A stretch of 60,521 nucleotides of DNA, the filler included, from Asterionella formosa (lineage: Eukaryota), in NCBI GenBank assembly GCA_002256025.1. It is 12 parts of 12 records of this genome, joined end to end, with 100 filler letters (N's around TTAATTAATTAA, not from the genome) between each part and the next. Parts side by side here need not be neighbours in the genome. Positions count along the whole stretch, not along the records: positions 15,194 to 20,152 come from NKIB01013281.1; 11 more parts are not named here. One strand, 5' to 3'. The number at the start of each line of letters is the position of its first letter. Position 1 is the first letter of the stretch. Under the pieces are notes generated by a model. It was not told the DNA's origin and searched no databases. It was given only the letters and a program-made list of their open reading frames with translations. Shown here one piece after another: positions 4,971-19,222 of the stretch. The translations under genes and the position numbers were made by a program.

Positions 4971-5070
4971 NNNNNNNNNNNNNNNNNNNNNNNNNNNNNN
5001 NNNNNNNNNNNNNNTTAATTAATTAANNNNNNNNNNNNNNNNNNNNNNNNNNNNNNNNNNNNNNNNNNNN
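4971..5070. other. Artificial contig-joining spacer; identical spacers at 10035-10134, 15094-15193, 20153-20252, 25217-25316, 30269-30368, 35317-35416, 40363-40462, 45407-45506, 50448-50547, 55485-55584
   Basis: 44 N + TTAATTAATTAA (stop codons in all six frames) + 44 N, repeated 11 times about every 5 kb. Confidence 0.99.
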
Positions 5071-15093: not shown

Positions 15094-15193
15094 NNNNNNN
15101 NNNNNNNNNNNNNNNNNNNNNNNNNNNNNNNNNNNNNTTAATTAATTAANNNNNNNNNNNNNNNNNNNNNNNNNNNNNNNNNNNNNNNNNNNN

Positions 15194-16293
15194 ACCAAGA
15201 CATCTTCGTTGCGCAAAGCATTACAAAAGGTTTCGGCTTGTGTTCGTCCCTCTTCACCCCCTGGAAACTCCCTCACCATGCCCCTTCCAGTGGTATGAGC
15301 TGACATCATCACTTTCTCAGCACTGTCCTCATCAAGAGCAGCAACGTCTTTCAGAATTTGAGCTACTCTTGTTCGTTTGTTCATGCGATCATTGTACAAC
15401 ATGACACGAAAGGTAGTGGAAGAATTGTTAGCCAATGATGAACGACTGATGTGCTCGTCTTCCTGGAGTCGATTTATGAACGCACGGCATGTCCCAGCCG
15501 AGACTGCATAATTGCCAAGAGCACGCATATCAGGACGTATCAATGCATTCATCCCCAAGACAACGCCATTGACATCCACAAGGGGCCCACCAGACATTCC
15601 TCCTGCCATGGCAGCATCTGTCACAACAAATGTTGAATTTCTTTCTGTGTAGCTCGTATCATTGTTTGCTTTTGTCGTTGTCGCAGTACTGGATCCAAAC
15701 CATTCCGACACCCCCTTTGCCATACCGCAAACTATTCCCATGGTCATGGCTGGTCCACCCACAATTCCAGAAGGATATCCGCTAGCAAACGCTAATGTGC
15801 CAACAGGAATAGTTTCGTTCAGACTCAATTGCAATGGTTGGTAAGTACGAGTACTATTGTCTGTCTTGAAACGGATCAAGGCAACGTCCGAATCTAAATC
15901 CCTCCCTACGACTGTGGCCGCATAGTAAGCAGTTGTCGTTGCATCAGGAAAGCACACCGTTAAACCAAGTCCTGGTGATGCCACATGTGCCGCCGTGAGA
16001 AGATAGACGTACTGTTCGTTATCATTGTAGTTCACCACAAAGCCAGTACCTTGCGACGTAATGTTCCGTACTCCTACGGGTACCACCTTGGCAACCTGTG
16101 GATGGATGCTCTGAGCCACATTGGTGGCAAAGTCGGATCGCACTGAACTTTGAATGCCGAATGGGGCTACTCGGTGCTGCTGCACAAAAGGACGAACTAT
16201 TACGAATGCATGGCAGGAAAATGTGGCAGTTAAACAAGACAAAATAAATAGAACTGTAGGTCGGCGGGGAATGATTGCGGAACCAAAGGACAT
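15194..16293 (-). CDS. Putative plastid-targeted trypsin-like (Deg/HtrA-type) serine protease fused to a C-terminal ClpS domain; last few codons cut by the contig end
   Basis: Signal peptide with SCHA/FVI (ASAF-type) site; QGTGFVV, LLTAAHV (His), GRDLDSDVALI (Asp), TDAAMAGGMSGGPLVDVNGVVLGMN (Ser); C-terminal FRVMLYNDRMNKR...AEKVMMSAHTTGRGMV...AETFCNALR matches the ClpS pattern. Confidence 0.9.
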
Positions 16294-17155
16294 GTTTGGA
16301 AACAAGTGATTTGTGTTGGGAAATGCCGCTATTATAGTTAAGAAGGTTGGCATGTATAATACGCAGTGCTGCCAAGAGCCAATTGCAAGGGACGATGATG
16401 TTTTATGAACGAAAGGATCACATTCTTTGTTCCACATGTGCCGGTATGCTGTCTCAGTCGTCAGAGTTTGGTCCAGAATCATCAGACATAATATAAGAAT
16501 ACCAGTATTCCAAATACCTGTAGGACAGATTCTCGCAGAACGCCGATGAATATCTTTTCGGTTCTTCCACTTTGCTACTGTACAGACGATACCTGCGATG
16601 TTTACACCTATGTACCGGTATATTAGATAAACTGTAAGGTTTGTACCGGTATTTCTTTGTCAGAATACTGAGGCTATGTGGCTAGGAGCCTACCGGTACA
16701 TATCAACGGTAACACCTGGAACGACATCTATGTAGTACCTGTTGCAGTATGTAATTAATATGCATGTGTACCGGTATCTACTGCCTTTTACTTACCTGGT
16801 AGTACCAGGGAACAGTGATGCTGCAAATACTAATCGCTCATTTTAGTTTTGGTCATGATTGATGCTCCGTCTCGTCAGGAACATTCACTGGAAGCAACCC
16901 CCTATTATCCTCTTGGATCATGGAATGTCAACCGAACAATGGCAGTTTTCGCAATACATACATGAACATAAATAATAAAAGTCTAACTTTGATATTGATA
17001 AATAGGTTCACCAAAATTAAATGTTCAAGTTTACAAAATTCTATTTCTTGGTTTCTCAAGATCCACTAATCACTTGGCCATGCAGCGCGGTACTAATGAG
17101 CCCAAGGGTGGGTGGCACATTCCATTCAGAAATATCCCTCATCACACCAGTCACG

Positions 17156-19222
17156 TTAGACATTTGAACATCCACAGAGGATGGCATTCACTTGCACAAT
17201 GGCGTCTTTTTGCGTACATTCCTGACGAGTCCACGCATTAACAATACCATCCAACTCTTCACACGTCATAGCTGTCGACATTTGTGCAAGTTGTGTAGGA
17301 TATAGAGGCGAGGAGCCATTGGGACACAAGCTGCAATCGCTGGCCGCTGGTGCAGCTACCGAACAACAACGAATGGAATTTTCCTCCATGGCGAACTGTT
17401 GAAGAGCACACACGTCTGGAGAAAAGTCCCGGACCATTGCAGCCAAGTCTCCACAGGTGCCTCCTCCTGGTAAAATATACCCTAGATCGGATGGAGCATT
17501 CCCATTGATACATAGTGCACATCCATCGGTAGTTGTGACATTTACTTCCGTTGATATCCCTTCATTATTAGTAGGTATGGTCACATTGGTCGGATCGGCA
17601 GCATTGGACGTACTATTGGTGTTGCCATCTGGAATCTCGGGAAGATGACACCCACAATAATCAGAATTGATTTGAATTAGGGAAGACTGTTCCTTGCACT
17701 CACCAGCAGAGAATTGGGCAATCAAATGGTCGAGATCTCTACAGGATAGATCTCCTGATAGTGAAATCCGATCTGGGTCATACACCAGACCAGAGGGACA
17801 GAGTGAACAGAACATGGATGGACACCCACAATTGACAGCATTAGGAGTGATCATTGACCTCTGTAGACTTGCGCATTCATTTTCACCGAGAATGGAAATG
17901 TATCCATTCAACTGCTTGCAGGTCATTTCGTCATTCAGGGAACGAGAGTCCGGCAATGACGGATAATCACCGTTTGGACACAGAGAACATGACTGCTGCG
18001 CAGTGGGGCAGCCACAGTATGCAGCACTTCCTTGGATACCAGAAACAAAGTCAAATGAACATTGCTCGCTCGAAAGAGTAGAAACGAAGCTGTTCATTTC
18101 AGCACAGGTATCATTGAAAACAGGAATTGTCAAGTTTGAAGGGAGCAGTCCAAAGGGACAGAAATTACAAGTTGAACTGTTAAGCGAAGGAATTTCAGGA
18201 CAACCGCAATAATTAGCAAATATTTGAATGTCTGTGTTGCATTTTCCACCCGTACTGTCAACAATGAGTTGGGCATTCTCGACAAGGTAGCTGCAGGTAC
18301 GGGGCGTCGATTCGTCTCCATGCCGAAAGCGAGGGATCAGCTTGCCTGGATTTTCCACGTTGATGTTTCTGTCTGGACAAAGTGTACACGTAAAATCAGT
18401 CGGAGCTTGTGATGGAGATATGGACTGGGAGGGAGCTGCGGATGGCTCCACACTGAAACTTGGGGAACTAGTCACTATTGGAACATAGTACGGAGCGCCT
18501 TCACTGGAGGTGGACGCTGAATGAACCGATCCTGATTTAAGAACTCCCCCCACTACTCCAATAATAGCCCCAAAAAAGAGCAAAATACCCAGAAACCAGA
18601 AAATTCTCCCTTTGGCAGGATGATCATCGATAATCTTGACCACATCCGCTAGGACTGCGGATCGAATAAATTCATCTCTGAGCCTTCCTAGACGCTGTTC
18701 GACTTGCGCTTCAATGTCCGCAGATTCCTCCACAATTTGGGCAACCACGATGAATTCATCATTCGAATGGCTGATAGCGACAGTCGCTGGATCCAAGGAT
18801 TGAGGTTTGAAAATATTAATTTCCTCCGCTTGTTCCTCAGTAAAGACCTTTGGTTGTTCTTTTAGCAAAGACTGGTTGCTTCTTTCCTTTCTCCTCTCCC
18901 GAGCGGCTTGGTGCATGCGATCCAGAAAGCAACTCGTTCCCGTCGATTCCGAATCAATCTTGCAATCTCTCATCTTTCGTCGTTCTCGAGCAGCTCGATG
19001 CATTTCATTTGTAGTACGTAGCTCCACTCCTCGATGAGATAGTTTGTGTAGCTTCTTTTCTGTGTGGCGTGCTGCAGTCGCACTGCTGGTGATGGCAGTT
19101 CCATTAGTTATAATAATAGGATCATATTGTTCCGAGGCTTCCATCATGGCGACAGCGCCAGGTACCACCACAGCACCAGCATCAGGTTTCATTTTCACGA
19201 CTTTTGCACAAGTTGCGTTCAT
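17156..19222 (-). CDS. Single-pass membrane protein with about six diatom-type cysteine-rich repeats
   Basis: Open ~688-aa frame; TM segment IFWFLGILLFFGAIIGVVGGVL, PS-rich stalk, repeats C(S/T)LCP..G....TC..L......C......CGC; start could be 19222 or 19192. Confidence 0.9.
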   Translation of the reverse strand: MNATCAKVVKMKPDAGAVVVPGAVAMMEASEQYDPIIITNGTAITSSATAARHTEKKLHKLSHRGVELRTTNEMHRAARERRKMRDCKIDSESTGTSCFLDRMHQAARERRKERSNQSLLKEQPKVFTEEQAEEINIFKPQSLDPATVAISHSNDEFIVVAQIVEESADIEAQVEQRLGRLRDEFIRSAVLADVVKIIDDHPAKGRIFWFLGILLFFGAIIGVVGGVLKSGSVHSASTSSEGAPYYVPIVTSSPSFSVEPSAAPSQSISPSQAPTDFTCTLCPDRNINVENPGKLIPRFRHGDESTPRTCSYLVENAQLIVDSTGGKCNTDIQIFANYCGCPEIPSLNSSTCNFCPFGLLPSNLTIPVFNDTCAEMNSFVSTLSSEQCSFDFVSGIQGSAAYCGCPTAQQSCSLCPNGDYPSLPDSRSLNDEMTCKQLNGYISILGENECASLQRSMITPNAVNCGCPSMFCSLCPSGLVYDPDRISLSGDLSCRDLDHLIAQFSAGECKEQSSLIQINSDYCGCHLPEIPDGNTNSTSNAADPTNVTIPTNNEGISTEVNVTTTDGCALCINGNAPSDLGYILPGGGTCGDLAAMVRDFSPDVCALQQFAMEENSIRCCSVAAPAASDCSLCPNGSSPLYPTQLAQMSTAMTCEELDGIVNAWTRQECTQKDAIVQVNAILCGCSNV

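Follow-up and report, generated by a model that had tools for sequence, protein, structure and literature searches.

In the window analyzed here, a stretch of 60,521 nucleotides (filler included) from the diatom Asterionella formosa (assembly GCA_002256025.1), a gene on the minus strand at 15194 to 16293 joins an HtrA/Deg-type serine protease to a ClpS domain. The fusion is real and forms one expressed chain, in which the catalytic triad and the ClpS pocket are conserved together. The explanation that we tend to favor is that of a nuclear diatom gene for a trimeric, ATP-independent and plastid-directed HtrA protease, in which the PDZ domain would have been replaced by a ClpS1-type reader of N-termini. 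The initial annotation of this DNA had proposed an N-terminus reader joined directly to a protease, with the Clp machinery bypassed or linked to it. The joining stands, as one conserved polypeptide holds both parts, whereas the role of the ClpS domain as a reader, an action without the Clp machinery and a place in the stroma are things we infer.

The fusion and its expression

Translation of 15194..16293 gives an open frame of 366 codons without a stop, counted from the ATG at 16293. The frame had been described as uninterrupted, which holds as far as stops are concerned, but it is incomplete, because the gene runs off its contig: it meets a spacer at 15193 with no stop codon, its 3' end being cut by the contig end. 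The protein P0002, which is 99% identical to the window protein, extends past the cut as ...EDVLVEVEQIKSY / ...NEDVLVEVEQIKSY, and these further nine codons are absent in the window. We therefore take the full C-terminus from P0002, and residue numbers of the window protein are those of P0002 minus 63. Both domains had been read in a single polypeptide, and both score there above their Pfam cut-offs: Trypsin_2 (S1C, HtrA/Deg type) at residues 82-248 (15550..16050; E 1.2e-23, 84.9 bits against a cut-off of 27.6) and ClpS (PF02617) at residues 292-344 (E 4.3e-11, 42.9 bits against 23). There is no intron and no break between the two.

The same fusion is found in many relatives from diatoms and in one haptophyte. 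With E up to 0.001 as the limit, 243 proteins were scored in a first homologue search, and PF13365 and PF02617 occur together in 101 of the best 120 of these, with 19 lacking PF02617 in the precomputed domain column. The named sources in which both occur are Attheya, Thalassiosira exigua, Seminavis robusta, Cyclotella atomus, Cyclotella cf. meneghiniana and 'Syned...', along with the haptophyte Diacronema lutheri, and two MMETSP transcripts marked 'complete' also hold both. In an exhaustive search, the representatives with E up to 1e-30 numbered 57, and those with E up to 1e-10 numbered 142. Among 23 further proteins that were scanned, 12 have both domains, nine have Trypsin_2 only and two, which are short, have ClpS only. 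Searching with the ClpS part at shorter lengths gave one match among three candidates, which is uninformative on stand-alone relatives, and a protein atlas search returned just generic Trypsin_2 clusters of bacteria and phages. In a FastTree tree of 104 family members, the window-like protein falls within a clade of 94 rows (local support 95) that includes all five named diatoms present in the tree, with Diacronema outside it.

The stretch, or part of it, occurs in 20 sequencing runs (19 recorded as RNA; 17 studies), and the named runs are all lake or other freshwater metatranscriptomes. In four runs from four studies, two of them polyA libraries, one RNA contig each spans ClpS, linker and protease with zero gaps and no joints, and the region 15411-15480 between the domains, singled out at the outset as the place to look for RNA, is crossed in this way. 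These four contigs start approximately 260-340 letters beyond 15194 and end at 16019, 16384, 16384 and 16312.

It could be argued that the fusion is an artefact, either of neighboring genes merged by assembly or read-through, or of a chance ClpS-like stretch, given that the window strings together short contigs that are unrelated and that the gene touches a contig end. However, both domains lie inside one contig and in one frame, their order and the linker are common to the 101 relatives from many sources, transcript-derived proteins carry both domains, the RNA contigs of four studies cross the junction without a joint, and the ClpS part scores nearly twice its Pfam cut-off. We consider an artefact extremely improbable and reject it.

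The protease domain

The folded protease domain spans approximately residues 55-265, beyond the Pfam limits. The His-Asp-Ser triad claimed initially from the motifs TAAH, DSDVAL and GMSGGP is fully present, as His103 (15985..15987), Asp136 (15886..15888) and Ser234 (15592..15594), and across the 104 aligned members the His is kept in 104, the Asp in 104 and the Ser in 102. Just ahead of the TDAA...GMSGGP block is a variable loop of low model confidence (residues 194-220, 15634..15714), which by its position we take to be the L3 sensor loop of HtrA proteases. By sequence, the closest solved relatives of the protease are Thermotoga HtrA, Synechocystis HhoA and plant Deg1; by fold, a Foldseek search with the model of P0002 matches HtrA1, DegS, DegQ, DegP, Deg1 and Deg5. 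Pfam finds no PDZ family in the window protein at E up to 1, and the usual place of PDZ is occupied by ClpS. NCBIfam models of DegP, HtrA and HhoA score 55-80 bits, far under their full-length cut-offs (80 bits against 416 for TIGR02037), as expected because the PDZ domains are lacking.

The ClpS domain and its pocket

The ClpS domain covers residues 294-366 (15194..15414), as delimited by hidden Markov models (HMMs), sequence matches in the PDB and structural models, and its last beta-strand is lost at the contig end. One NCBIfam ClpS model covers residues 288-362. The closest solved structure by sequence is Arabidopsis chloroplast ClpS1 (7d34), followed by Agrobacterium ClpS2, Plasmodium ClpS and E. 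coli ClpS. A profile built from ten short family members matches 7d34 with an E of 5.8e-11 over residues 4-76 of 82, and Plasmodium ClpS with an E of 6.4e-10.

The pocket can be followed by alignment through the motif L-Y-N-D-R-M-N-K-R-T-R-V ... S-A-H-T-T-G of the window, L-H-N-D-N-F-N-K-R-E-Y-V ... E-A-H-I-N-G of Arabidopsis ClpS1 and L-V-N-D-D-Y-T-P-M-E-F-V ... A-V-H-Y-Q-G of E. coli ClpS. The triplet N301-D302-R303 (15385..15393) is equivalent to what we take to be N34, D35 and D36 of the E. coli pocket, and His333 (15295..15297) to its H66. The original description of this pocket, in which the Asn, the first Asp and the His are kept and the second Asp is Arg, is borne out by the translated protein, where LYNDRMNKR...SAHTTGRG is present. 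Asp36 of E. coli ClpS is needed there. At the gatekeeper position, which is Met40 in E. coli and Arg in Arabidopsis ClpS1, the window has Arg307 (15373..15375). On these alignments the domain is of the plastid ClpS1 type, basic gatekeeper included. A review describes Arabidopsis ClpS1 as binding N-terminal F and W, with the basic gatekeeper as a determinant of selectivity (PMC7966870).

Among the 104 members, the pocket Asn is kept in 102 and the Asp, the Met and the His in all 104, as is the Asn two residues on; 102 members have a basic gatekeeper (R 57, K 45). The ClpS domain and the first protease part are equally conserved, with a mean share for the commonest residue of 0.57 in each, against 0.81 for the second protease part and 0.27 for the linker. 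Particularly well kept are the C-terminal helix and last strand of ClpS, with Ala416 in 104, Asp427 in 103 and Glu431 in 100 of 104 members (P0002 numbering). The linker itself (residues 266-293, 15415..15498) is predicted to be a long helix with a short spacer and is variable in sequence. Measured between the NYAVS motif and the pocket Asn, a span that differs slightly from this one, it is 25 to 65 residues long across the family, with a median of 33.

A paralogous diatom clade (P0102-P0119, P0116 and P0091) consists of longer proteins of approximately 500-630 residues. P0116, from Skeletonema dohrnii and 36% identical, has the ClpS-like tail YRVMLYG-YSS...SAYSFG, in which the N-D pair and the His are lost, and P0091 has a similar tail without the pocket residues. 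Most of this clade scores under the Pfam ClpS cut-off, which P0091 barely reaches. Since the N-D pair and the His were lost in P0116 and P0091, the pocket is not retained by default; in the main clade it is undecayed.

Predicted structure

An AlphaFold2 model of P0002, made with 104 family sequences, has a mean predicted local distance difference test score (pLDDT) of 78.9 and a predicted template modeling score of 0.72. Both domains exceed a pLDDT of 90, low values being those of the leader, the transit-like stretch and one loop. A long helix (P0002 residues 329-350) connects protease and ClpS, and the ClpS domain is modeled as beta-alpha-alpha-beta-alpha-beta with block-mean pLDDT of approximately 94-98.

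The fold of the ClpS part was tested on a relative with the NDR motif, P0173, rather than on the window's own sequence, because the last strand is missing from the window copy and the fold matches are dominated by the protease. ClpS structures fill ranks 1-33 among the Foldseek matches listed for the P0173 model, the best of them with template modeling (TM) scores, normalized to the target, of 0.85-0.92 and root-mean-square deviations (rmsd) of 1.1-1.5 A; the values are 0.85 and 1.3 A for 4yjm, and 0.86 and 1.5 A for 7d34. Thus, the ClpS assignment of the C-terminal ~73 residues agrees with HMM and PDB sequence matches and, on this relative, with a fold match. P0173 itself has 102 residues, with a motif NDRFNKR and only 18 residues before the ClpS core, and it could represent either a relative of the fused domain that stands alone or a piece left by a split gene call.

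Three copies of P0002 residues 115-438 were predicted as a homotrimer with a score of 0.87, against 0.00 for the best of three controls; in the calibration this mark was reached by 21 of 30 proteins with solved structures as same-chain pairs and by 0 of 23 with solved structures as single chains, a calibration that, unlike our job, did not use three copies. Agreement between the trimer runs is at least 86% of contacts, with a partner pLDDT of 74 or higher. The confident contacts are all in the protease domain, and none comes from ClpS residues.

The predicted plastid address

The N-terminus of the window protein, MSFGSAIIPRRPTVLFILSCLTATFSCHA/FVIVRPFVQQHRV... with the predicted cut at the slash (...TATFSCHA/FVIVRP), consists of a hydrophobic leader, a small residue, a Phe and a basic stretch. 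The leader, which resembles a signal peptide (residues 1-29, MSFGS...LTATFSCHA; 16207..16293), has its predicted cut between Ala29 and Phe30, judging from the sequence, a hydrophobic window, the Ala/Phe pattern and the ASAFAP rule. It is followed by a transit-peptide-like stretch (residues 30-54; 16132..16206), which starts with Phe, is basic and poorly conserved and has low pLDDT. The signal peptide with a CHA/F cleavage motif that had been noticed at the start therefore fits the diatom plastid motif. The consensus of the family at the cleavage region is xxAFxP. A complete N-terminus is available for 87 of the 104 members, 73 of which have a hydrophobic leader (window at least 2.0). An Ala-Phe pair follows the leader in 37 of these 73, against only a few per cent expected by chance on a rough estimate, and a small plus an aromatic residue follow it in 66, which chance often gives. 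The presequence motif is also used by haptophytes. The ASAFind paper names the ASAFAP-type motif for plastid presequences of diatoms, as well as for cryptophytes and dinoflagellates, and gives F, W, Y or L as required in diatoms at the residue with which the transit peptide begins (PMC4329603).

Proposed mechanism and alternatives

In the mechanism that we propose, the protease domains would assemble as the usual HtrA trimer, and the three ClpS domains would stand at its rim on flexible, variable helices, where PDZ sits in DegS and DegP. Each ClpS pocket would capture a free N-terminus that begins with a bulky hydrophobic residue (Phe, Trp, Tyr or Leu), and this capture would tether the substrate to the protease, switch the protease on, or both. 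The PDZ domains of DegS and DegP bind free C-termini and, in doing so, tether substrates or switch the protease on. Degradation by the fusion would thereby be chosen by the N-terminal residue, without ClpC or ClpP.

The role that ClpS normally has is that of an adaptor, and one study states that E. coli ClpS needs for this an N-terminal extension, free and disordered and 14 or more residues long, which is pulled by the ClpA pore (PMC8666677). In the model of the fusion, the place of this extension is taken by a helix and the folded protease, and for that reason a canonical hand-over of substrates to ClpC seems unlikely. A related possibility is that ClpS acts as a docking module, bringing the protease to ClpC/ClpP or making the fusion an adaptor or regulator of ClpC, in which case the two systems would be linked and not bypassed. 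The domain descends from a plastid ClpS1 type that binds ClpC, its C-terminal helix and its last strand, both strongly conserved, could mark a surface for interaction, and stand-alone ClpS cores possess, besides the pocket, a surface that binds the ClpA or ClpC N-domain, according to two sources (PMC8666677; 10.1101/2024.06.12.598358). Against docking, there is no free N-terminal extension for the pore of an unfoldase, and the two positions presumed to match the acidic ClpA-contact residues of E. coli, placed by eye, are acidic in just 36 and 67 of the 104 members. Neither of these objections is decisive, because the contact surface for ClpA or ClpC is described, in the same preprint, as poorly conserved even among true ClpS (10.1101/2024.06.12.598358). 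We judge docking to be rather improbable.

A different alternative is that the ClpS-like domain no longer reads N-termini, and has become a structural, oligomerization or gating module or binds some other ligand. This would agree with the third pocket residue, which among the 104 members is R in 47, P in 45, N in 6, G in 5 and M in 1, that is, R or P in 92 and Asp in none, and with the clade of P0116 and P0091, which keeps the domain with a destroyed pocket, so that some pocket-free use exists. However, the kept N, D, Met and His (102 to 104 of 104 members) and the basic gatekeeper (102) are features that a scaffold would not need, and the predicted trimer interface has no confident ClpS contacts. 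Furthermore, the third position is not Asp in Arabidopsis ClpS1 either, a protein that the review describes as binding N-termini with F or W (PMC7966870). A loss of the reading function thus seems doubtful to us. The alignment has Asn at this position in Arabidopsis ClpS1 and Asp in bacteria, and the fused family has R and P about equally, so the loss of the second Asp is not by itself a sign of changed specificity. The earlier suggestion of a possibly changed specificity was right that the second Asp is Arg in the window, but the loss alone does not carry that conclusion.

Returning to the reading of a plastid-directed HtrA protease governed by an N-terminus reader, several points weigh against it. 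Besides the consistent absence of Asp from the third pocket position, an Arg beside the alpha-amino site could weaken binding or alter the ligand, and the pocket His is replaced by Asn in two of three variants that carry an additional Lon domain (see below). The catalytic Ser is absent in the two members noted above. The trimer score may merely reflect likeness to, or memory of, solved HtrA trimers. RNA libraries, including metatranscriptomes, can hold DNA, and the plastid address rests on a crude in-house motif count in place of a trained predictor.

Comparison with known systems

With the HtrA/Deg proteases that carry PDZ (DegS, DegP, DegQ, HtrA1 and plant Deg1), the fusion shares the S1C chymotrypsin fold, the His-Asp-Ser triad, a predicted trimer formed via the protease domains and a small domain for binding peptide ends after the C-terminal helix of the protease. 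In those enzymes this domain is a PDZ that reads free C-termini, whereas here it is a ClpS, which would read free N-termini. Deg5, a plant plastid HtrA, also has no PDZ (4ic5; target-normalized TM 0.75, rmsd 2.9 A), but it lacks any substitute domain for reading substrates.

The ClpS part shares with Arabidopsis ClpS1 (7d34) and Plasmodium apicoplast ClpS (4o2x) the pocket N-D-x-[FM]-N-K-R...A-H, the basic gatekeeper, the AE..C..LR helix and the fold. Unlike the fusion, which has a protease instead of the flexible extension, these are free adaptors of approximately 100 residues, and the window has Arg as the third pocket residue and the family has R or P, where Arabidopsis has Asn and bacteria have Asp. 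The UBR N-recognin ligases, such as yeast Ubr1, follow the same principle of a ClpS-fold domain built into a degradative enzyme, and Ubr1 (7mey) matches the fold weakly (Foldseek rank 49, E 0.072). However, Ubr1 is a ubiquitin ligase that feeds the proteasome, whereas the effector in the window is a protease in the same chain and its ClpS part is close to bacterial and plastid ClpS.

A rarer form, known from MMETSP and Logan transcript assemblies of marine protists (P0142, P0154 and P0167), consists of a Lon substrate-binding N-domain followed by Trypsin_2 and ClpS. These proteins have the same order of protease and then ClpS and share the motif ND-x-F-N-[KT]-K, but they differ in the extra N-terminal Lon domain and in a protease that lies nearer to DegQ-like enzymes of bacteria. 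When P0154 was used as the query, P0167 was the only other protein found.

Gene limits and neighboring sequence

The open frame stretches upstream on the minus strand as far as an ATG at 16482, and a further in-frame ATG (16351..16353), 20 codons upstream of 16293, is a candidate alternative start. RNA contigs end at approximately 16384-16403, so they include the ATG at 16351-16353 and do not reach the one at 16482. The true start of the window gene is for this reason 16353 or 16293, and the leader with its SCHA/F site is unchanged whichever of the two is used. A start at 16482 was set aside since no RNA contig reaches it, a weak argument given that contigs do not define the ends of transcripts. 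The annotated form of P0002, with 438 residues, probably starts too early.

The spacer next to the gene (15094..15193) is not biological; it is an N run, TTAATTAATTAA and another N run placed between two unrelated contigs. TTAATTAATTAA with flanking N runs occurs in 11 copies at steps of approximately 5050 bases (0.04 copies expected by chance), at positions 5015, 10079, 15138, 20197, 25261, 30313, 35361, 40407, 45451, 50492 and 55529. The window is hence made of 12 unrelated contigs of approximately 5 kb, gradually falling in size; features that cross a spacer are artificial and genes at the edges are cut. The contig of the HtrA-ClpS gene also carries, at 17156-19222 on the minus strand, an open reading frame of 688 residues, which is rich in Cys and has a repeated pattern C.LCP...C..L......CGCP; it matches no Pfam family at E up to 0.01, and no link to the HtrA-ClpS gene was found.

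Possible implications for N-degron recognition in diatom plastids

The fusion has been catalogued by automatic annotation but, as far as we found, neither described nor studied. The automatic name given by the Joint Genome Institute is 'S1-C subfamily serine protease/ATP-dependent Clp protease adapter protein ClpS', and the UniRef name of the Diacronema protein is 'Adaptor protein ClpS core domain-...'. The initial annotation knew of no description of this architecture, and a full-text literature search likewise found no paper on ClpS fused to a trypsin-like or HtrA protease, although supplements could list such genes. Excerpts of three papers touch on the subject: a review states that ClpS1 is present in plastids, joined in some species by 'ClpS1-like' proteins, with no fusion mentioned in the excerpted text (PMC7966870); in the Nitzschia genome, 'ClpS (K06891)' is an expanded family, whose architecture passes without comment in the excerpt (PMC13149256); and in Nannochloropsis there are two nuclear genes with ClpS domains (PMC3999925).

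What might the fusion degrade? According to a preprint on M. smegmatis, F, W, Y and L are the primary N-degrons bound by ClpS (10.1101/2024.06.12.598358). These are the residues allowed in diatoms at position 1 of a transit peptide, and therefore, in algae with complex red-type plastids, every plastid precursor whose signal peptide has been cut off carries an N-degron of the ClpS type, as does every released transit peptide. The fusion could then be a dedicated ATP-independent N-degron protease that uses the import mark to clear released transit peptides, or import intermediates that are stalled or unprocessed, a proposal to which we give little likelihood. It agrees with the speculation of the initial annotation, in which Phe-starting transit peptides exposed by signal cleavage were one substrate class, and gives it a concrete form. 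If it were true, the import signal would be tied to a clearance pathway, and this would be the first N-degron pathway with recognin and protease in one polypeptide.

To our knowledge, N-degron systems keep the reader (ClpS or the UBR ligases) separate from the protease and feed an ATP-driven machine. A reader inside an ATP-independent HtrA would be a third design, and an N-terminal mirror of the HtrA enzymes regulated by PDZ. The family is large and easy to express, and it comes with a natural control in the paralogue whose pocket is dead. Diatoms, in which it occurs, are major primary producers, and its RNA contigs are present in lake metatranscriptomes. The family offers a testable handle on the in vivo ligands of plastid ClpS-type pockets and on the fate of Phe-initiated transit peptides in complex plastids.

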